Positions 6,599 through 44,910 of a stretch of 56,927 nt of DNA are shown here, one piece after another. The notes under the pieces were generated by a model. That model ran no database searches, was not told where the DNA came from, and saw only the letters and a list, made by a program, of their open reading frames with translations. Position numbers and translations under genes: made by a program. The DNA is taken from assembly GCA_028276365.1 (NCBI GenBank), contig JAPYWL010000005.1, forward strand, positions 1 to 56,927, written 5' to 3'. Source of the stretch: Deltaproteobacteria bacterium (GTDB lineage Bacteria > DRYD01). Each line of letters starts with the position of its first letter. Position 1 is the stretch's first letter.

Positions 6599-6682
6599 CT
6601 TTTGTACTTTTACATAAGCATAGCTTTTTAGGTATCAGTAATACAACATAAAGCTTTTTAATAGCTTAACTTTAAAACACTC
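6591..6682 (+). repeat. Dispersed intergenic element, copy 1 (partner: 33972..34086 on the minus strand)
   Basis: 6607-6644 (CTTTTACATAAGCATAGCTTTTTAGGTATCAGTAATAC) matches the reverse complement of 34021-34058 at 32/38 positions by hand alignment. Weaker similarity continues on both sides (AAGGGGA; GCTTT..GCTTA..TTTAAA). Confidence 0.6.
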
Positions 6683-6762
6683 TAAATAAATTTATTGGTG
6701 CCTAATTTTCTATATGTCATAAACTTAATACCTATTAAGCCTTTACCGAGCCATACCTAAAG

Positions 6763-11585: not shown

Positions 11586-11760
11586 CCTGAAATTAAAGTA
11601 AATTATAAAATTATTGTTTACATGTATAGTGTTTTTTTAGATTATTTGTTAAAACAGGAATAAATTAATTCTATTCTGAAAACCTATCAATTTTTCTTTA
11701 GTAATTACAAAGCCAGAAAAACTACCCTATTTCACATTAACAGTTTTTTTTTACTATGAA

Positions 11761-11848
11761 GGATTTTTTTATTTTTTTTACCTAATTATTATATTGGAGT
11801 AAATATACATCCTTCCTTAGTTTAGCTTACACATAGGGGAATTGAAAG
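11761..11848 (+). repeat. Leader-like T-rich block (11761-11807) plus a solitary 29-nt CRISPR-type repeat GTTTAGCTTACACATAGGGGAATTGAAAG (11820-11848)
   Basis: Near-identical copy on the minus strand at 19902-19819. Similarity ends exactly after ATTGAAAG. The repeat length and 3' ATTGAAAG are typical of Cas6-type repeats. No second repeat follows downstream. Confidence 0.65.
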
Positions 11849-11869
11849 TTTTAAAATCTTAAAACTTTC
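11844..11869. other. Perfect 11-bp hairpin (GAAAGTTTTAA-AATC-TTAAAACTTTC) spanning the repeat 3' end and the stop and last codons of 11851..13416
   Basis: Base pairing checked position by position (11844-11854 with 11869-11859). The plus strand follows with CCGTTTCTATTT. Confidence 0.5.
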
Positions 11870-13416
11870 CCGTTTCTATTTAGAATCTGATTATCTTTTA
11901 GAGTTAATTTTCCATTAACAAAAACGTATTTAATTCCATCAGGGTATTTATGAGGATCTAAGTAAGTTGAATTATCTTTTAATTCATTTAAATCAAAGAT
12001 AACAATATCAGCAAAATAATTTTTTTCAATACTTCCTCTTTTATAGATATTAAATTTTTTAGCAGGGAATTCAGATAACTTATATATAGCTTCCTTTAGA
12101 GATAAAACTTGCTTTTGTTTAACGTATTTATTTATAAATTTAACAAAGGTTCCATAAGTTCTAGGGTGAGGCCAAGACAAAGAATTAGGACATCTTATTG
12201 CACTATCACTAGCAACCATTACATAAGGCTTAGTCGCTATATAATCCACTTCTTCTTCATCCATTAAGAAATAAATAGCTCCTAAATCATAACCCTCTGT
12301 TTTTAATAGATAAATAACAGTTTTAGCAGGGGTTAATCCTAAATCCTTAGAAATTTGATCTATAGTTAATCCAACATATTTTAATAATTTAGGGTTATAA
12401 GCTTCAGATATAATAATTTTATCCCAAGGGGTGTGATAATTATTTTCTATATCTATTTCTACTTGTTCCTCATTTTCAGAAATATTAGCTATAATATCTT
12501 CAATAGATCCTTCTAAGTATTTATCAGGTAATACTTGAGATAATCCAGTATTAGAAGCTTCATAGGGATATTGATCAGCATCAATATTAATCCCTTCTTT
12601 TTTAGCATTTTCAATTAAATAACAAGCATCCCTTGCTTTACCTTTTGCTGAAGAAGCTGCTTTTAAATGAGAAATCTCAAAATTAACACCGCTCTCTCTT
12701 GAAATAGTTATGCTCTCTTGAATAGCTTCAAGTAATTTAGAGCTTTCAGAACGCATATGATTAGTTAAAATTTTACCCTTAGATTTAACTACTTTTGCTA
12801 ATTCTATTAACTCTTTAGTATCAGAAAATTTTCCAGGTATATAAATTAATCCTAAAGATAATCCAATAGCACCATCATCTAATACTTTTGATAACTCATT
12901 TTTAAAAAGCTCAATATCATTTTCACTAAGTTTAATATTATTATACCCAAATAATCCTCCTCTAATTTGTCCATGTCCCGCTAAATATCCATAATTAATA
13001 GCTATATCTAAAGATTCAATATAATCTAAATATTCCTTTAAAGATCCCCATTTTAATTCATTGATATTGTAGCTTTGTGCTTCAGTTTTTATTGAATTTA
13101 AAGTATTAGGATATAAAGGACTCACAGCGAACCCACAATTACCCGAAATAATAGTAGTAACCCCTTGATACAAAGCACTACAAGCATCAGGATTAGCTAT
13201 TATAGTTAAATCACTATGACTATGGACATCTATAAACCCAGGTGATACATATAAATTATTAGCATCTATAACTTCAAAGCCATTTACTCTTAAATTATCT
13301 ATATCTTCTTGATTTAGATTATCATAATTTATTTCAGCTATAACCTCATTATCTATAAATATATTTCCCTTTTTCTCCTTTTGAATTATATAACCATTTA
13401 TTATAGCATATTTCAT
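11851..13416 (-). CDS. N-acyl-D-amino-acid deacylase (D-aminoacylase), amidohydrolase superfamily
   Basis: Metal-binding motif PGFIDVHSHSD near the N-terminus. Length and C-terminal beta-sandwich-like end match the D-aminoacylase family. Confidence 0.8.
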   Translation of the reverse strand: MKYAIINGYIIQKEKKGNIFIDNEVIAEINYDNLNQEDIDNLRVNGFEVIDANNLYVSPGFIDVHSHSDLTIIANPDACSALYQGVTTIISGNCGFAVSPLYPNTLNSIKTEAQSYNINELKWGSLKEYLDYIESLDIAINYGYLAGHGQIRGGLFGYNNIKLSENDIELFKNELSKVLDDGAIGLSLGLIYIPGKFSDTKELIELAKVVKSKGKILTNHMRSESSKLLEAIQESITISRESGVNFEISHLKAASSAKGKARDACYLIENAKKEGINIDADQYPYEASNTGLSQVLPDKYLEGSIEDIIANISENEEQVEIDIENNYHTPWDKIIISEAYNPKLLKYVGLTIDQISKDLGLTPAKTVIYLLKTEGYDLGAIYFLMDEEEVDYIATKPYVMVASDSAIRCPNSLSWPHPRTYGTFVKFINKYVKQKQVLSLKEAIYKLSEFPAKKFNIYKRGSIEKNYFADIVIFDLNELKDNSTYLDPHKYPDGIKYVFVNGKLTLKDNQILNRNGKVLRF

Positions 13417-16212: not shown

Positions 16213-16962
16213 ATGACTTTATTAGAAAAAGGTGGATATGACAGTATATTAGTTTCTTTAAGAAGAGTAACAAGAGTAATGAAAGGTGGTAAAAGGTTTA
16301 GGTTTAGTGCATTAGTAGTAGTAGGAGACGGTAATGGTAGAGTAGGAGCTGCATTAGCTAAGGCACCTGAAGCTATGTTAGCTATTAGAAAAGCAGAAGA
16401 AAAAGCTAAAAAAAATATGTTTAATGTCCCAATTGTTAATGAAACAATACCTCATGAAACAATTGGAATAAATACAACTTCAAAAGTATTATTAAAACCA
16501 GCAGGTTCAGGGACAGGTATAATAGCTTCTATGCCAGTTAGAAGTGTCTTAGAAAAAGCAGGGTATAAAAATATCTTAACCAAATCCTTAGGTAGTAATA
16601 ATCATATAAATTTAGTATGGGCTACTTTGGATGCTCTTAAAAAACTTAAAACCAAAGAACAACAATTAGAAATCTTACAATCCCAAGAATCAAAAGATCA
16701 ATTTGAAAAATATTTAAAAACTACTGAAATCAAAGAACAACCTAAAGAAAATAAAGTAAAAAATCAGCAAATAAATACAGAAATTCAAAAAAATTCTGAA
16801 AATAAATTAAAATATGAACAACAACAAAAAAATTATGATAAATCAAGTTTTAAACAAAAAGATAATTTCAAAAGGCCTCCCAATAAACCAAATTATAAAA
16901 AATTTAATAAAACCTATAAAGAATCTACATCAGAAAATCATGAGAATAAAAATCAAGAATAA
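16213..16962 (+). CDS. rpsE: 30S ribosomal protein S5 with a ~100-aa Lys/Gln/Asn/Glu-rich C-terminal extension
   Basis: Core [29 protein letters not shown]...[10 protein letters not shown]. The tail begins at about nt 16663. Confidence 0.95.
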
Positions 16963-18533: not shown

Positions 18534-18566
18534 AATAAAGAATCTAAAACTAAAGGGAGGTTGAAA

Positions 18567-19802
18567 ATGAATAACTTATTAAGTGAATTAGATCTAAAAT
18601 TAAAATTCTACTCACTAAATGATTTAGTTTATGTAATACCAGATAATTCAATACCTACTACTTATTTAAGTATTTACTTTTTAAGTGGAAGTTACTTAGA
18701 AAGTCTTGGTAAATTGGGATTAAATTATTTAGTGTTTAAGACTTTAATTAGATCTACTAAAAAATTCAAATATGAAGATTTAAATTACTATTTAGAAAAA
18801 TATTCTATAAGTGTAAGTAGTTTTGCAGGATATTTTAATAGTGGAATTTCATTATCTTTTCCGTTTTATAATTATAAAGAAGCTTTATATGCTCTAAATT
18901 CTATAATATACGATTATATTTTTAGAAATTCCGATTTAGAAGAGGTAAAAAGAGATTCAATTAATAGTATAAAAATTTTAAAAGATGACATATATTCATA
19001 TTTAACTGCTTATGCAGATAAAGCTTTCTATAGTTCATTTTTAGCTAACGATGTTAAAGGAAATATAAAGAATATAAAAAAATTTACAAGAAAAGACTTA
19101 ATTAATTGGTATGAGAATTTAATTAATTCAAAAGATATAAAAAAAATAATAATAATTTCAGGATATACTACTCCTAGTTTTGAGCAACAAGTATTTAGAA
19201 ATTTTAAAAAGATTTTAAATAAAGATAACAATTATATTAGTAAAATGAGTGATTTTGATATAGTTCCTAAGAGAATAACTCATAGATTAAATAAAGTAGA
19301 AACAGGAATAGCTATAATTTATCCTGCTCCTACTTATAATTTAGATTTCTTTAGCTATAAAGTTATTTCATCTATATTAGGTTCTATGTCAGGTAGATTA
19401 TTTGTAAATATAAGAGAAAAACAAGAATTAGCTTATGCTATTAGCTCATATTATGAACCTCTACCTATAAAAGCTGGTAGCATTAAATTCACAATGCTAA
19501 CCTCAAAAGAAAATAAAAATAAAGCCTTAAATGCCTTATTAAATGAAGTTAATGATATAATAAAAAACGGTTTTAAAGAAGATGAAATAATTACCGCTAA
19601 AAATTATATTATAGGTAATTACATTGATAGCTTTATAAAACGATCATTTAAAGCTTCTTTATTAGCTAAATCTATTTTATTCAATATACCTTTAGAATTT
19701 ACAAATAACTACATAAATTATATAAACTCAGTTAGTAAAGATACTATAAATAGTAAATTAGATTATTTTAAAAATAAACCAGGTATTTTTATCGTCTTTT
19801 AA
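18567..19802 (+). CDS. M16 (insulinase/pitrilysin) family protein, probably non-catalytic
   Basis: The fold-level pattern of M16 is present, but the HxxEH zinc motif is replaced (GLNYLVFKTL). I prefer the ATG at 18567, which has GGGAGG 6 nt upstream, over the TTG at 18561. Confidence 0.65.
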   Translation: MNNLLSELDLKLKFYSLNDLVYVIPDNSIPTTYLSIYFLSGSYLESLGKLGLNYLVFKTLIRSTKKFKYEDLNYYLEKYSISVSSFAGYFNSGISLSFPFYNYKEALYALNSIIYDYIFRNSDLEEVKRDSINSIKILKDDIYSYLTAYADKAFYSSFLANDVKGNIKNIKKFTRKDLINWYENLINSKDIKKIIIISGYTTPSFEQQVFRNFKKILNKDNNYISKMSDFDIVPKRITHRLNKVETGIAIIYPAPTYNLDFFSYKVISSILGSMSGRLFVNIREKQELAYAISSYYEPLPIKAGSIKFTMLTSKENKNKALNALLNEVNDIIKNGFKEDEIITAKNYIIGNYIDSFIKRSFKASLLAKSILFNIPLEFTNNYINYINSVSKDTINSKLDYFKNKPGIFIVF

Positions 19803-19818
19803 TTCCCCTACTTTCTTT

Positions 19819-19902
19819 CTTTCAATTCCTCTATAGGTAAGCTAAATAGTTATGCTATATATTTACTTCAATATAACAATTAGGTAAAAAAATAAAAAAT
19901 CC
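19819..19902 (-). repeat. Second copy of the leader-like block plus a solitary CRISPR-type repeat ATTTAGCTTACCTATAGAGGAATTGAAAG (19847-19819, minus strand)
   Basis: The reverse complement aligns with 11761-11848. Block 1 has 2 substitutions and two 1-nt T-run indels. The repeat has 3-4 substitutions. An 11-13 nt variable linker separates them. The repeat ends 16 nt from the stop of 18567..19802. Confidence 0.65.
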
Positions 19903-19937
19903 TTTATATAAATTTTTAATAAAAAAAACCACTTGAT

Positions 19938-20728
19938 GTGAAAGCTTTAATTCAAATTAAAATGAATGATTTTTATAATTTTTATAGTTTTAAAATTTAT
20001 TCAAGTAATATATACGATTTAAACCAAAAGGAAATAATAAATAGAATTAAATTAGTTAAAAGCAAATTTAACAAACTAAACGTAATATTACCAATTCAAA
20101 AACATACCAATAAAATACTAAAATTATCTCAATTATTAAAAATTCGAAATTTAGATGAAGGTTTTGATGGGATATATTTTGATAATAAAGATATTTATTT
20201 ATTAAAGCATTTTGCTTTAGGGGTTTTAACTGCAGACTGCTTGCCTATTGTTATATTAATCTTTAAAGAATCTTTACGAAATATGAACAATTTAGCTAAC
20301 TTAGAAAATTCATCATTGGTAGCATATTACATGCAGGTTGGAAAGGAATCTTTAATAATATAATTTACAATTTCTTTAATATAGTAAATAATTATTTGAA
20401 AAATGAAAGTAATATTAAAGTAATTGCGTATATAGGTCCTTGTATAAGAGATTGTTGTTATGAAGTTAAAGAAGATTTTATTAAAAAACTAAATATTAAC
20501 TCTAATTTTTACTATTTTAAAGATAAAAAAATATATTTAAATTTACCATTTATTGTTAAATATCAAATAAAGCAGTATTTTTTAAACCTTAAAAATACAA
20601 TAAAATTGGAAAATACAATAGAATTGGATTTAATAGATGTTAATAAATGTACATACTGTAGTAATAATTATTTTTCATATAGAAAAGGTAATAAAGAAGA
20701 AAGAAATATAACCATTTTATCAATTTAA
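19938..20728 (+). pseudogene. pgeF: Peptidoglycan editing factor PgeF / YfiH (DUF152) interrupted by a frameshift
   Basis: Frame 1 (19938-20363) carries QKHTNKI...GVLTADCLPIV. The conserved HAGWKG and IGPCIRDCCYEV motifs lie in another frame that is open from 20300 and continues into the 20396..20728 ORF. The junction is near the A4 run at 20305-20308. Confidence 0.75.
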
Positions 20729-33523: not shown

Positions 33524-33971
33524 TTTATTACTACCCTATATATAATTATAATTTTTTTTTTCAAAAAAACAAGCGTTTTAAATAGCTTTTATTGTAAAAT
33601 TTTTGTAAATTTTATTAACATAAATTTAAAATCTTACTTTTATATTAAAAACCCTAAAAAGAGTTTATTTTTTTTAGTTAATTTTTAAATTACAGCAAAT
33701 ATAATATACTAGTTTAACAAAAAGCCGCAAAAAGTATCGATTTTCTATAAAGTGGAGATGAATTGCTAAAAACTTAATAGATATTTGGAACAGAATAAAT
33801 ACTATAGAGCATAGAGAATTAGATAGTAATAAGCAGTCTGTTGTTTTATCACCTTTATTAAACTATAGGAATAGAAAATAAAAGAAAGGATTTCAATAGG
33901 ATTTTGACTTGTATTGTGTATGGGAGAGTTTATAAAAGGGATGAAAATATAAACTTATACTAAGTAAGGTT

Positions 33972-34086
33972 GGGTACGCTTTAAAACTAAGCCTTTAAAG
34001 CATGGTCTGATGGCTGGACCGTATTCCTTATACCTAAAAAGCTAAACTTATGTAAAGCTCACTTATCCCCTTAGGAGAATTAAAAG
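33972..34086 (-). repeat. Dispersed intergenic element, copy 2 (partner 6591..6682). On the plus strand it includes a degenerate CRISPR-repeat-like segment (34052-34086)
   Basis: See 6591..6682. The plus-strand sequence GTAAAGCTCACTTA[TCCCCT]TAGGAGAATTAAAAG matches the 11820-11848 repeat at about 22/29 positions if a 6-nt insertion is allowed. Confidence 0.5.
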
Positions 34087-34132: not shown

Positions 34133-34531
34133 CTAATTAAAAAAAACAATAATAATAGAATTAGCAACAGTGATTTTTTTTTCATGAGAAATACTTACTT
34201 TAATTATAAAATCTTTTACTGATTTATTAAGCAAAATAGATAACTTATTTAAAACAGAATTACTATTAATAAAATGTATTTCGTTATTAGATATAGAAAT
34301 TAAATTAAAATTGACTTTAAATGAGATAGCTTTAGTAATAGCTTCTTTAGCAGCAAACCTACCTGCTAAAAACTCTACCTTCCTTCCATAATTAGATATT
34401 TCATTATATTTATTAATCTCATAATCACTTAAAATCCTTTTGATAAATTTCTGATTATAAATATGCTTAGAAATCCTGTTGTTATAGACTATATCTATTC
34501 CTGTATTGATAAAAATTTTATCATAAGACAT
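34133..34531 (-). CDS. acpS: Holo-[acyl-carrier-protein] synthase
   Basis: GIDIV near the N-terminus, FAAKEAITKA, and SISHEK near the C-terminus. Confidence 0.8.
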   Translation of the reverse strand: MSYDKIFINTGIDIVYNNRISKHIYNQKFIKRILSDYEINKYNEISNYGRKVEFLAGRFAAKEAITKAISFKVNFNLISISNNEIHFINSNSVLNKLSILLNKSVKDFIIKVSISHEKKITVANSIIIVFFN

Positions 34532-41820: not shown

Positions 41821-44800
41821 CTATTTTAATCTTTCATTAATAGTATTTAACTTTGCTTTAACAATACCTATCATTAATCCCTCCTTCCCATAAATTACAA
41901 CCACATTATCCTTAAAAACCCAACTAAAAATAATCCCCTTTCCTAATTCTTCATAATAATTATTTATATCCTTCATAAAACTAAATAACTCAGATATATA
42001 TTTTAAATTCAATTCTTTAAATATACTATTACTAACAAAATAGCTACCCATATTATTTTCTTTAATAATAGATATTCCATCAATCTTAGGATTATTTATA
42101 ATATCAAAAATTTCTTTTGAAATATTACTTAAATTTTCATCTACATTAAATTTTATTAACTCATTTTGTTCAGAAACTAATTCCCCCTGTTTAATACTTT
42201 TATTTAACTCACTCTTTTCTAATTCTTGTATATCGGTAACTGCAGCTTCCTGTGTTAAATTTTCTTCTATTAAGAATTCCTGAACCCAATTCATCTCACT
42301 TATTTCTTTAAATTCATTAGTTTCAATTTTTAATTCTTCTGCCTTTATTTCCTTTTGATCCTTATTATCCAAACTATCTAAATTTATGTCATCCAAATTA
42401 ATACTATCTAAATTTATATCATCTAAATTTATATCATCTAAATTAATATTATCTAAATTTATACTATCTAAATTAATATTATCCAAATTTATATTATCTA
42501 AATCTAAAGAACTAATATCAAGATTAAGATTTATATCAACATCAACTTTTTGAACTTCCTCAAAAATTAATTCATCCCTTATTTTTAAAACTTCTTTATC
42601 CTTTTCACTTTCTAATCTCTCTTTCTCAAATAAATCATCTTCTTTATAATCTAACTTTACTTCCTCTGATTTAATCTCTTTTTCTTCTTTCTTAAATAAA
42701 CCACTATCACTACTACTAATATTTAATTCATTAATATTTAATTCTATTTGTTTATCTACATTTTCTAAACTTTCTAAATTATTTAAACTATCTTTCAATT
42801 CTATTTCTTTATCATTTAAATATTTTGAATCATTAATTTCTACTAATTGTAATTCATTTTGTAATTGATTTTCTAAATCACTACTTAAAAAAGTATCTAA
42901 TTTTTTTTGTGATTCTTGTTTAATGCTTTCTTCTAATAAATCCTTATTCAAATTCTCAAAAACTTCATTACTTTCTTTTGAATCCTTAACCACTTCTTCT
43001 TTATTTACAATTTCAGTGTTATTAATTAGATCTTCTAATTCTAAATTTACCTCAATATTCTCAATAGCTTTTAAATTGTCCAAAGGAGATAAGTTATCTA
43101 TAGAAGATAAATTATCTAAAGAAGATAAGTTATCCAAAATAGGTAAATTATCTAAAGAAGGAAAACTATTTAACAATTCTAAATCTTCTTTCTTTTCTGC
43201 TAAATCTCTATTTTCAAATATATTTTCTAAATTACTACTAATAAAACTCCTATCTTCTAAATTTTCTACTAATTGTCCTTGAGTAATAAAATCTTTTTCT
43301 AAATCAATCTCTCTTTGAAAATCGGTATTACCTAAATTTTCTTGAATTTCATTTTCTTTTAAAGCACCTATTTCATTATCTAAAATACTTTTATTTTCTA
43401 ATAATTCCTTATTATCAATATCATAAGAGCTATCAAAAATAGATACTTTATTAAAATCATTTAATTCTTTCATCTCTAATTCCCTAGTTTCTAGTTCTTT
43501 TAATAAATCAATTTCTTTAAAAGAATCAGCCTCAATAATAACTTCCTGCTTGATATCAAAATTTTTAGTAATATTAATGCCAAGATCTATATTATCTACT
43601 TTTTGAACTATATCAGATTCCTTTTCTAATTCATTAATTAGACTAAAATCTATATCTATCGGAAGTTTTACCCCAAGACGTTCCTCTTTTGTCTTAGTTT
43701 GTTCCTCTTTTACTTCAATTGCTTCTTCTTTTGTTTCTATTTGTTCCTCTTTTACTTCAATTGCTTCTTCTTTTATTTCTATTTGCTCCTCTTTTACTTC
43801 TATTGGTTCTTCTTTTATTTCTATTTGTTCCTCTTTTACTTCAATTGCTTCTTCTTTTGTTTCTATTTGTTCCTCTTTTACTTCAATTGCTTCTTCTTTT
43901 ATTTCTATTTGTTCCTCTTTTACTTCAATTGCTTCTTCTTTTATTTCTATTTGTTCCTCTTTTATTTCAATTTGTTCTTCTTTTGCTTCAATTTGTTCCT
44001 CTTTTATTTCAATTTGTTCTTCTTTTGCTTCAATTTGTTCCTCTTTTATTTCAATTTGTTCCTCTTTTACTTCTATTGGTTCTTCTTTTGTTTCTATTTG
44101 TTCCTCTTTTACCTCTATTGGTTCTTCTTTTGCTTGTACTTGTTCTTCTTTTATTTCTTTTGGCAATACTTCTGCAATTTGGATCTCAGATATTTCTTGC
44201 TTTACTTCAGTATAAATCTTAGTTAATAAATCTTTCACTTTTTCAATAAAAACATTGAAATTAAGCAATTCATCATAAATAAAATTAATAAGAATATAAT
44301 TATTAAAGACATCCAGATTATTATTATTAAAAACCAGTTGTTTAAAATGAGAATCTAAAGAAGCAAAAATTTTCTCATATATTCTTTTTACTTTATTAAT
44401 TTTTTTAGGATCCTCAATATAGTATTTTTTCTCTTTAAAATGATTAATTATATCCTTAGGATTATCCAAAACAAGCTCAATTTGATTTTTCTTCTTATCA
44501 TCTTCAAAAGGGATTAATTCATTAACATTAGATAATAACCTTTCTTTCAGTTCATTTTTAGTTTTAACCAATTGCTCTATATCTTTATTTATATTTTCTA
44601 AAATATAATTTATATCCTGAAGATCTATTAGCTTCAATAAATTAAGTTCTTGTTCATTTAAATTATAAAAAAACGATTCTTTATTTAGATTATATTTTTT
44701 ATAAAGTTCTAAAAGATTTTTAAATTTAGATAAATTATTACTAAATAATTCCAACTGATTTTCATTAAATATAGCATAAGATACATCATTAATAAAACTA

Positions 44801-44910
44801 ATAAATTCGTAGTCAATAAGAGAATTAAATAGAAAAGGGAAAGAAAATAAATTAGGTAGCTCCAAAATTTTTTGATTATAAAAAATTTCATTATCAATAG
44901 TAATATTCAC
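41821..44910 (-). CDS. 1029-aa highly acidic tandem-repeat protein with a possible Roadblock/LC7-like C-terminal domain
   Basis: Uninterrupted ORF containing three internal repeat arrays. The C-terminal ~100 aa (IDGISIIKENNMGSYFVSN...GKGIIFSWVFKDNVVVIYGKEGLMIGIV) resembles the Roadblock/LC7 fold pattern. This is an inference. Confidence 0.6.
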   Translation of the reverse strand: MNITIDNEIFYNQKILELPNLFSFPFLFNSLIDYEFISFINDVSYAIFNENQLELFSNNLSKFKNLLELYKKYNLNKESFFYNLNEQELNLLKLIDLQDINYILENINKDIEQLVKTKNELKERLLSNVNELIPFEDDKKKNQIELVLDNPKDIINHFKEKKYYIEDPKKINKVKRIYEKIFASLDSHFKQLVFNNNNLDVFNNYILINFIYDELLNFNVFIEKVKDLLTKIYTEVKQEISEIQIAEVLPKEIKEEQVQAKEEPIEVKEEQIETKEEPIEVKEEQIEIKEEQIEAKEEQIEIKEEQIEAKEEQIEIKEEQIEIKEEAIEVKEEQIEIKEEAIEVKEEQIETKEEAIEVKEEQIEIKEEPIEVKEEQIEIKEEAIEVKEEQIETKEEAIEVKEEQTKTKEERLGVKLPIDIDFSLINELEKESDIVQKVDNIDLGINITKNFDIKQEVIIEADSFKEIDLLKELETRELEMKELNDFNKVSIFDSSYDIDNKELLENKSILDNEIGALKENEIQENLGNTDFQREIDLEKDFITQGQLVENLEDRSFISSNLENIFENRDLAEKKEDLELLNSFPSLDNLPILDNLSSLDNLSSIDNLSPLDNLKAIENIEVNLELEDLINNTEIVNKEEVVKDSKESNEVFENLNKDLLEESIKQESQKKLDTFLSSDLENQLQNELQLVEINDSKYLNDKEIELKDSLNNLESLENVDKQIELNINELNISSSDSGLFKKEEKEIKSEEVKLDYKEDDLFEKERLESEKDKEVLKIRDELIFEEVQKVDVDINLNLDISSLDLDNINLDNINLDSINLDNINLDDINLDDINLDSINLDDINLDSLDNKDQKEIKAEELKIETNEFKEISEMNWVQEFLIEENLTQEAAVTDIQELEKSELNKSIKQGELVSEQNELIKFNVDENLSNISKEIFDIINNPKIDGISIIKENNMGSYFVSNSIFKELNLKYISELFSFMKDINNYYEELGKGIIFSWVFKDNVVVIYGKEGLMIGIVKAKLNTINERLK
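42365..42505 (-). repeat. 15-nt (5-aa INLD[DNS]) tandem repeat, about 9 units, inside 41821..44910
   Basis: Visible in the DNA (ATCTAAATTTATATC-type units) and in the protein (NINLDNINLDSINLDNINLDDINLDD...). Confidence 0.85.
43075..43175 (-). repeat. 18-nt (6-aa LDNLxx) tandem repeat, about 5-6 units, inside 41821..44910
   Basis: Protein SLDNLPILDNLSSLDNLSSIDNLSPLDNL. DNA GATAAGTTATCTATAGAA-type units. Confidence 0.8.
43690..44155 (-). repeat. 21-nt (7-aa KEE[QPA]IE[IVTA]) tandem repeat, about 22 units, inside 41821..44910
   Basis: Protein KEEQIEIKEEAIEVKEEQIET.... The DNA shows a 21/42-nt periodicity. This array generates the spurious poly-Leu/Phe ORFs on the opposite strand. Confidence 0.9.

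Follow-up and report, generated by a model that had tools for sequence, protein, structure and literature searches.

Two short non-coding modules, each made of a leader-like block followed by a single 29-nt repeat of the CRISPR kind, were analyzed in a 56,927-nt stretch of bacterial DNA (contig JAPYWL010000005.1, called the window throughout). The window has a G+C content of 24% and carries murB, rplR-rpsE-rplO, gap, fliF and aspS. The genes on either side of each module are co-directional, and the module runs antisense to them. At locus 1, 2 nt separate the repeat end from the stop codon of an amidohydrolase gene, and at locus 2 the repeat end adjoins the stop codon of an M16 peptidase gene. 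The antisense placement, and the distance of 2 nt at locus 1, had been described in an initial annotation of the window and agree with the list of open reading frames (ORFs). The features of the two loci are listed below; contigs of relatives, presented in the next section, are designated by L numbers.

11713..11819, + strand: truncated CRISPR leader, proximal part (locus 1), subfamily T1, delimited with nhmmer profiles
11820..11848, + strand: CRISPR repeat of locus 1, in one copy, GTTTAGCTTACACATAGGGGAATTGAAAG; it matches the array consensus at 28/29 positions (C12A)
11845..11870, + strand: perfect 11-bp hairpin GAAAGTTTTAA/TTAAAACTTTC, obtained by folding 11812-11890
11851..13416, - strand: amidohydrolase (D-aminoacylase-like) gene, 3' end facing the repeat (Pfam Amidohydro_3/Amidohydro_1)
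18561..19802, + strand: M16-family peptidase gene, 3' end clipped and re-terminated by the insertion (Pfam Peptidase_M16_C)
19796..19818, - strand: what is left of two partial repeats of 15 nt in tandem (repeat positions 15-29), from the alignment with L042 and with the empty sites of L062, L064, L066, L054 and L055
19819..19847, - strand: CRISPR repeat of locus 2, in one copy, ATTTAGCTTACCTATAGAGGAATTGAAAG; it matches the consensus at 26/29 positions
19848..19946, - strand: truncated CRISPR leader (locus 2), subfamily T2 (nhmmer; left junction by comparison with the empty sites of L062 and L064)

The two blocks recognized by the initial annotation, and their recurrence on the other strand, were confirmed in place. 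The 29-mers of the two loci are separated by 4 substitutions, so that a search allowing 3 mismatches recovered locus 1 only. The 30-nt core of the leader-like block (block 1) occurs twice in the window (0 and 2 mismatches), compared to no match in 100 shuffled sequences. The likeness of the two loci had thus been correctly perceived, but the upstream limit given to it was too short: in pairwise alignment the similarity extends farther upstream, via TTTCACATyAA...TTTTTTTTA, and profile alignment gives module lengths of 136-142 nt (11707/11713-11848) and about 126 nt (19944-19819). The leader of locus 1 starts at CCAGAAAAACTACCC TATTTCACAT, has the 10-nt deletion of subfamily T1 and ends with a CATCCTTCCTTA linker; that of locus 2 starts within a TTTCACAT segment and ends with a TAGCATAACT linker. 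The hairpin at 11845-11870 is composed of the last 4 nt of the repeat and of the native 3' end of the amidohydrolase gene, with the stop codon inside. At locus 2 the inserted DNA covers 19796-19946 and includes at its end the remnants of the partial repeats, one of which, TAGGGGAATTAAAAG, occupies 19810-19796, while the preceding one is shortened by a 7-nt deletion.

As initially annotated, the window contains neither a CRISPR array nor a cas gene: each locus has one full repeat, there is no tandem array with a period of 60-70 nt, and no ORF of at least 100 aa in the 57 kb matches a cas family. No other repeat match of at least 17/29 rises above the shuffled background in the window. At neither locus was a second repeat-like sequence present 20-60 nt downstream on the module strand, and both can be classified as solitary repeat units, having a near-identical single repeat outside arrays and no second repeat downstream. 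A search of Rfam identified one tRNA only in the window and no CRISPR-DR match to the window module at E<=10; the consensus repeat scores 20.8 bits against CRISPR-DR2, below the threshold of 37. The putative TTACCT/TAAATA promoter that the initial annotation proposed for block 1 was not picked up by a sigma-70 consensus scan, and no terminator was detected by a terminator scan of either locus. Upstream of module 1, no distal leader was matched by the profiles within 11586-11712, a sequence copied elsewhere only in the L062 ortholog.

Arrays and cas genes of the relatives

A degenerate pattern of the repeat had no match in a species-representative genome collection, and the repeat sequence was not found in a literature search. 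The same pattern identified 51 stretches in metagenome contigs; chance matches in G+C-richer contigs were set aside, and the remainder have 21-34% G+C (mostly 21-27%). The repeat of the relatives, GTTTAGCTTACCCATAGGGGAATTGAAAG, is present either in regular arrays or in single copies. Arrays comprise 46 (L022), 23 (L059), 19 (L030), 15 (L016) and 11 (L015) repeats with a period of about 66 nt, and the array consensus was derived from these five contigs. Upstream of the first repeat of the arrays there is a conserved leader, about 255 nt long, and block 1 corresponds to its final part. This leader was found at the head of arrays of 3-23 repeats, and arrays with this repeat reach 46 copies. Bona fide arrays, which the initial annotation proposed to look for in the whole genome, are present in related metagenome contigs, under the same leader.

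Two nhmmer profiles, both of which exclude the window sequences, were aligned to the window. The profile of 27 metagenomic modules matched 11707-11848 with E=6e-35 and 19944-19819 with E=4.2e-30; that of 12 full-length leaders matched 11713-11848 (E=1.4e-25) and 19942-19819 (E=5e-25). The alignment to the full-leader profile spans model positions 163/181-304 only, the 160 distal positions being absent from the window units. At the head of arrays of 2-46 repeats in related contigs stand this very leader and repeat, which makes block 1 a genuine CRISPR leader and the 29-mer a genuine repeat of such arrays. Judged from the same alignments, each window unit is composed of the repeat-proximal 100-107 nt of the leader and one 29-nt repeat, with no spacer.

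In relatives, one array has cas6 (139.6 bits for a cut-off of 58.65) upstream of its leader and cmr1, cmr3, cmr4 and cmr5 downstream. The Cas6 protein of L004 has 243 aa. In longer contigs the operon resumes, beyond an inserted gene pair (DUF6036 and AAA-ATPase/PD-(D/E)XK), with cmr6, csx3/crn3, csx1 (CARF-HEPN) and cas10/cmr2, the latter with a match of 374 bits. A Cmr system devoid of Cas10 had been suspected from short contigs; it was rejected on the evidence of cmr6, csx3, csx1 and cas10 in the longer ones. By these family matches, the gene set of the relatives is a complete type III-B effector-and-signalling set. The assignment of the repeat to the Cas6-processed type I/III kind is in good agreement with arrays located between cas6 and cmr1-cmr3-cmr4-cmr5...cmr6-csx3-csx1-cas10; its 3' tag, ATTGAAAG, resembles a Cas6-type tag in sequence. 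Neither cas1 nor cas2 was seen within 10 kb.

Other arrays with the same leader adjoin murC, ilvE, a Fur/PerR gene and rpsB, which makes dispersed arrays a normal feature of the lineage. Contig Ga0079997_116833 (97.8 kb) runs collinear with the window, is 95-98% identical to it over the genes compared, and carries the 4-repeat array L005 together with further solo units (L012). The species of the window itself thus very probably has arrays.

Some arrays have no leader, their first repeat abutting unrelated sequence (L005/L026 with 3-4 repeats; L041/L048 with 6 repeats); at the Fur/PerR-adjacent site, a full leader is present in the other strains L008, L014 and L046. A multicopy gene of about 509 aa (AAA-ATPase_like and PDDEXK_9), the copies of which are 70-90% identical, is often found beside leaders or solo units (L008 380-1903; L014 1842-3368; L059 12209-13735; also L012, L025, L029, L033, L038, L047 and L051). 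In L059-L061 this gene and a DUF6036 gene are inserted in the cmr operon between cmr5 and cmr6. The multicopy gene was considered as a mobilising enzyme and rejected, its proximity being inconsistent and no transposase signature being present.

Insertion and spread of the units

Syntenic relatives were retrieved via ribosomal protein S5 (77-90% identical) and the M16 peptidase, and the two loci were compared between filled and empty sites. At locus 1 the window and L062/L063 (S5 90% identical) have the unit, which is absent from L064 (S5 88%), where 30 nt separate the two genes. The flank in common with L064 restarts immediately 3' of the final base of the repeat, which sets the insertion boundary directly after 11848; the flanking TTTTAAAATCTTAAAACTTT is native, as it is also present in the empty site of L064. 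At locus 2 the unit is shared by the window and L042 (94% DNA identity), whose repeat is a perfect copy of the consensus; it is absent from L062, L064, L066-68, L054 and L055, where the gap measures 15-90 nt. Insertion at this locus removed the M16 gene's last codon together with its stop codon, for both of which a partial repeat supplied replacements, with a TAA at 19800-19802; the C-terminus reads ...IVF* in the window, compared to ...IVD* in the relatives.

Two further filled/empty pairs (L019 vs L037 and L050 vs L047) have a unit of about 150 nt in place of 9-105 nt of native DNA. The right end of the inserts is located 0-3 nt from ...ATTGAAAG and the left ends are clustered around CCAGAAAAA. 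Inverted similarity within the units is solely that of the weak dyad of the repeat itself. These comparisons indicate that the window units are recent insertions. Among the three origins envisaged by the initial annotation, a mobile leader-repeat module is the one best supported by the data, with filled and empty orthologous sites and with subfamilies defined by derived characters.

Just downstream of module 2, a Cu-oxidase_4 (YfiH/PgeF-like) gene (19962-20728, + strand) is broken in the window by a frameshifting 4-nt deletion, and about 12 further codons are missing in frame. The copies of L042, which has the module, and of L062 are intact. The broken copy is either a pseudogene or an assembly error.

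The unique sites were sorted by leader type. Full-leader units head arrays, and also occur as solo units where another strain has an array: the solo unit L028 occupies the site of the 19-repeat array L030, and L009 that of the cmr-adjacent array L004. Truncated-leader units, the class to which both window units belong, are present at about 12 unique sites in the relatives, in all cases as solo units. A truncated leader was observed at 0 of the 4 array sites with a proximal leader, compared to 12 of the 15 solo sites (Fisher p=0.009). Subfamily T1, which includes window locus 1, is characterized by the 10-nt deletion and a CATCCTCCTTA linker, both in common with the full-leader solo unit L012/L026, and is present at no fewer than 7 sites (>=7). 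Such derived characters, common across sites, speak for the copying of a unit that was already variant, and against independent decay of many arrays. Some orthologous sites carry different variants of the module (L029 vs L047; L025b vs L051), which indicates that copies exchange sequence.

Recurrent deletions were observed in the proximal leader (L006 6750-6792; L017 2100-2143; L038 2120-2166; L060 7320-7372). Their right end is always at the leader-repeat junction (<=2 nt), while their left end is variable within the AGAAAAATTACCCTACTGCACATCG segment. At the other side of the units, the final 15 nt of the repeat (TAGGGGAATTGAAAG) can recur in 1-3 tandem copies that abut the terminal full repeat with no spacer, as in L042 (4027-3990, - strand), in the window (19818-19796) and at the trailer ends of L009, L051, L008 and L026. 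The leader segment AGAAAAATTAGCCTATTTCACATTGACAG was considered as a degenerate repeat that would make the unit a two-repeat mini-array; this was rejected, as the identity of 14/29 is not above chance and the observed deletions lack the hybrid junction expected from repeat-repeat recombination.

We compared the divergence of the modules with that of their flanks. At locus 1, between the window and L062, identity is 83% for the repeat, 95% for the leader and 95-98% for the flanks, with 5 differences in the repeat for 1.0 expected (P=0.003). At locus 2, between the window and L042, it is 90% for the repeat, 91% for the leader and 97.5-98% for the flanks, with 12 differences for 2.9 expected (P=5e-5). 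The modules diverge faster than their flanks, which is the opposite of what is expected of a conserved regulator. The repeat is weakly structured, and the substitution present at locus 1 abolishes even its weak hairpin.

The orientation of the units is biased. The gene downstream of the repeat is convergent in 17 of the 19 unique solo sites (binomial p=7e-4), and its stop codon is mostly located between -26 and +41 nt from the repeat end. Nearness to stop codons is largely forced, the native gaps being only 15-90 nt long, but the orientation bias is real. A replication-strand bias of the IS200/IS605 type was rejected as its cause, since the GC skew of the window follows the gene strand. In addition, the two window modules are 8 kb apart in opposite orientation and each is antisense to the local genes, so that the bias tracks transcription and not replication. 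It would be best explained by selection against insertions in the sense direction, in which the long T-runs and the outward promoter of the leader would disrupt operons.

Origin and fate of the leader-repeat units

Taken together, these results make it probable that the two modules are orphan, spacer-less leader-repeat units derived from a type III-B (Cas6/Cmr) system, dispersed as a truncated-leader class and not conserved after insertion. A duplicative process acting at the DNA level copied this class into very short gaps downstream of housekeeping genes, each insertion swapping out from a few to about 100 nt of native DNA and having one end at the 3' end of the repeat. Once inserted, the units are found in some close strains and missing from others; their divergence outpaces that of their flanks, and copies exchange sequence with one another. 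The leader segment probably still drives transcription toward the repeat and, with Cas6/Cmr in the cell, an RNA that bears the tag and is antisense to the neighbour gene's 3' end would form; this RNA would be a by-product and not a selected regulator. As the distal half of the leader, present in every real array, is absent, the units probably cannot acquire spacers and remain at one repeat.

Several points weigh against this interpretation. The cas genes and the arrays were observed in relatives only, and of the window's own genome the 57 kb of the window were covered. In the four filled/empty comparisons there was neither a transposase nor a target-site duplication nor a terminal inverted repeat, and the left end of the inserts is ragged over about 8-15 nt. 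Both the promoter activity and the inability to acquire spacers are properties that we infer. Finally, function, instead of youth or gene conversion, could also account for the orientation bias and for the near-perfect state of the repeats in many solo units of relatives.

A tentative proposal, which we regard as possible but doubtful, is that the leader-repeat junction of a type III-B array might itself act as a non-autonomous element that copies itself to new chromosomal sites, in the manner of a miniature inverted-repeat transposable element (MITE). During spacer integration the Cas1-Cas2 integrase cuts at the leader-repeat junction and at the 3' end of the repeat. The two recurrent breakpoints described above, i.e. 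insertion ends at the repeat 3' end and leader deletions ending at the junction, coincide with these cut sites, and it is this coincidence that suggests the proposal. If it is true, misdirected integrase chemistry, or the repair of its nicks, could seed new CRISPR loci genome-wide.

Other origins were weighed against dispersal of orphan units. The window units could be relics of arrays that stood at these very sites, collapsed to one repeat by repeat-repeat recombination and later lost the distal leader. The full-leader solo units found at array sites of other strains (L028 vs L030; L009 vs L004) and the recurrent leader deletions (L006, L017/L038, L060) are consistent with such a decay. We nevertheless consider this origin, one of those put forward in the initial annotation, unlikely for the truncated-leader class, which was never seen heading an array (0/4 array sites with a proximal leader vs 12/15 solo sites); the derived characters that truncated units have in common across sites point to the copying of an already solo, variant unit, and independent decay would scatter the left ends, which cluster at CCAGAAAAA. 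It is very unlikely that the units are empty but competent arrays, landing pads of a leader and one repeat awaiting spacer acquisition by Cas1-Cas2. A leader and a single repeat are enough for adaptation in E. coli, and growing arrays elsewhere in the lineage start with this proximal leader and repeat. However, the distal 125 nt accompany the proximal leader in every array that has it and are absent from the window units; cas1 and cas2 were not seen in the window or in the DNA of the relatives examined, and the window repeats are mutated.

The initial annotation also envisaged regulators resembling solo-repeat CRISPR RNA (crRNA). An RNA transcribed from the leader promoter would be cut by Cas6 8 nt from the repeat end, and the tag followed by an antisense guide would direct Cmr to cleave the 3' end of the convergent mRNA, Cas10 remaining silent since the read-through mRNA pairs with the tag. 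The cognate system does comprise Cas6 and a type III-B complex with Cmr4, Cas10, Csx1 and Csx3, the 17 of 19 solo units aimed at the 3' end of a convergent gene lie mostly -26 to +41 nt from its stop codon, and many solo repeats of relatives are perfect copies of the consensus. We find this role quite improbable all the same. Close relatives lack the units at both window loci and at two other sites, and the units diverge faster than flanking coding and non-coding DNA (83-91% identity vs 95-98%). Substitutions number 1 and 3 in the two window repeats, one of them removing the weak hairpin, and the proximity to stop codons is largely imposed by the 15-90 nt of the native gaps. Moreover, in a systematic survey, mini-arrays adjacent to type III systems had no conserved positions or detectable targets and were judged probably degraded (PMC10120712). 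An origin unrelated to CRISPR, as the end of an insertion sequence (IS) or MITE or by chance resemblance, can be regarded as already refuted on the strength of the alignments. The units do behave as dispersed insertions, the window copy has no Rfam match and the consensus repeat remains below the CRISPR-DR2 threshold; yet the window repeats are 28/29 and 26/29 identical to the repeat of 46-, 23- and 19-unit arrays adjoining cas6/cmr, their leaders are homologous to the array leader at E<=1e-25, and neither terminal inverted repeats nor a target-site duplication nor a transposase was found. The identification of the module as an IS/MITE terminus, which the initial annotation had named as a possible refutation of its view, thus does not hold in any of the four filled/empty comparisons.

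Among known systems, the closest precedent for dispersed orphan units is that of Methanocaldococcus jannaschii, with its truncated long-repeat and single short-repeat units. Its genome contains 18 dispersed loci made of a leader (LR, long repeat) and repeats (SR, short repeat) (Bult et al. 1996, summarised in Haft et al. 2005, PMC1282333); two of the leaders are truncated, each with a single repeat at its end, and one cluster of repeats lacks a leader (PMC1282333). As in that genome, one leader family and one repeat family extend over many loci, mostly heading arrays, and leaderless arrays also exist here (L005/L026, L041/L048). The present host differs in being a bacterium with a type III-B system, and in having, among classifiable sites, about 12 truncated-leader sites compared to 4 leader-headed array sites. 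Filled and empty sites, subfamilies and an orientation bias are documented here, M. jannaschii being compared through its published description.

Viruses and cas loci are the known settings of solitary repeat units and ectopic repeats (Faure et al. 2019; Shmakov et al. 2023, PMC10120712; PMC8616872), and ectopic copies are reportedly gained and lost dynamically in genomes with an active system (PMC10120712). The window units resemble them in having a single repeat nearly identical to the host array repeat and located outside arrays. Published solitary units are, however, bare and located in viruses or in or near cas loci, whereas those of the window have 100-107 nt of leader and lie in housekeeping operons far from cas genes; family searches of the window ORFs gave no sign of a phage context around them. 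With CreA/CreTA, CreR, scaRNA and tracr-L, the window units have in common that they are repeat-derived, are located outside arrays and could yield a tag-bearing RNA. These regulators have a spacer-like segment of 20-60 nt, usually a second degenerate repeat, and partial complementarity to a promoter; they are conserved and function with type I, II and V effectors. In contrast, the window units have no second repeat at spacer distance and are not conserved among close relatives, and their full complementarity to the adjacent gene arises solely from geometry. The abutting 15-nt partial repeats of locus 2 have no counterpart at locus 1, and neither locus corresponds to a regulatory mini-array. 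Like MITE and repetitive extragenic palindromic (REP) elements, the units are short and non-coding, occupy many intergenic sites, are polymorphic among strains, form subfamilies and are tolerated in operons. They differ from these elements in that no terminal inverted repeats, target-site duplication or cognate transposase were found, and one of their ends is a CRISPR repeat boundary.

How CRISPR leaders and repeats spread within genomes has been an open point since the 18 loci of M. jannaschii, and the process is here caught at nucleotide resolution, through filled and empty sites between strains 92-98% identical, a breakpoint at the repeat 3' end, subfamilies copied from copies and a spacer-less truncated class. 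Two statements can be put to the test, concerning the portion of the leader required for adaptation and integrase chemistry as the origin of ectopic loci. The results also call for caution in annotation, since a perfect leader and repeat need not mean an array or a regulator. For the window, the practical outcome is two decaying non-coding inserts adjoining housekeeping genes, with the look of neither working immune loci nor gene regulators.

Other features of the window and its lineage

A third module was considered at 33640-33716 / 34058-34086 (+ strand) and not accepted, as the nhmmer match has E=0.03-0.11 with a high compositional bias and an identity of 18/29 is at background level. The leader-like stretch at 33640-33716 ends with ...ATATACTAGTTTA and is followed, 340 nt on, by the repeat-like 29-mer CTCACTTATCCCCTTAGGAGAATTAAAAG (18/29), neither match being significant. 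The G+C-richer non-coding stretch between the two has no Rfam match. The two matches are aimed at the 3' end of a convergent ACPS gene (34133-34531), and the region could be a decayed third locus or an RNA of another kind. Among the relatives, L037 has a leaderless solo repeat (12740-12830, module orientation) between two 22-nt direct repeats, TTATTTAATCnnnGCTAAACTA, which include the reverse complement of the first 7 nt of the CRISPR repeat.

The motif AGCTAAACT is over-represented in the window, with 6 matches for 1.04 expected. Two of the matches, at 6761 and 34040, are intergenic, and both regions share a 36-nt inverted repeat (6609-6644 / 34021-34056, 89%). The lineage is uncultured and very AT-rich (21-25% G+C). 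Its ribosomal protein S5 (16213-16962, + strand, 249 aa) has a C-terminal extension of about 85 aa found only in this lineage. Finally, a 1029-aa ORF (41821-44910, - strand) with no Pfam match contains 11.5 copies of a 42-nt tandem repeat (43681-44162, 91% matches), and further coding repeats of 15 nt and 18 nt are present at 42375-42503 and 43072-43160.

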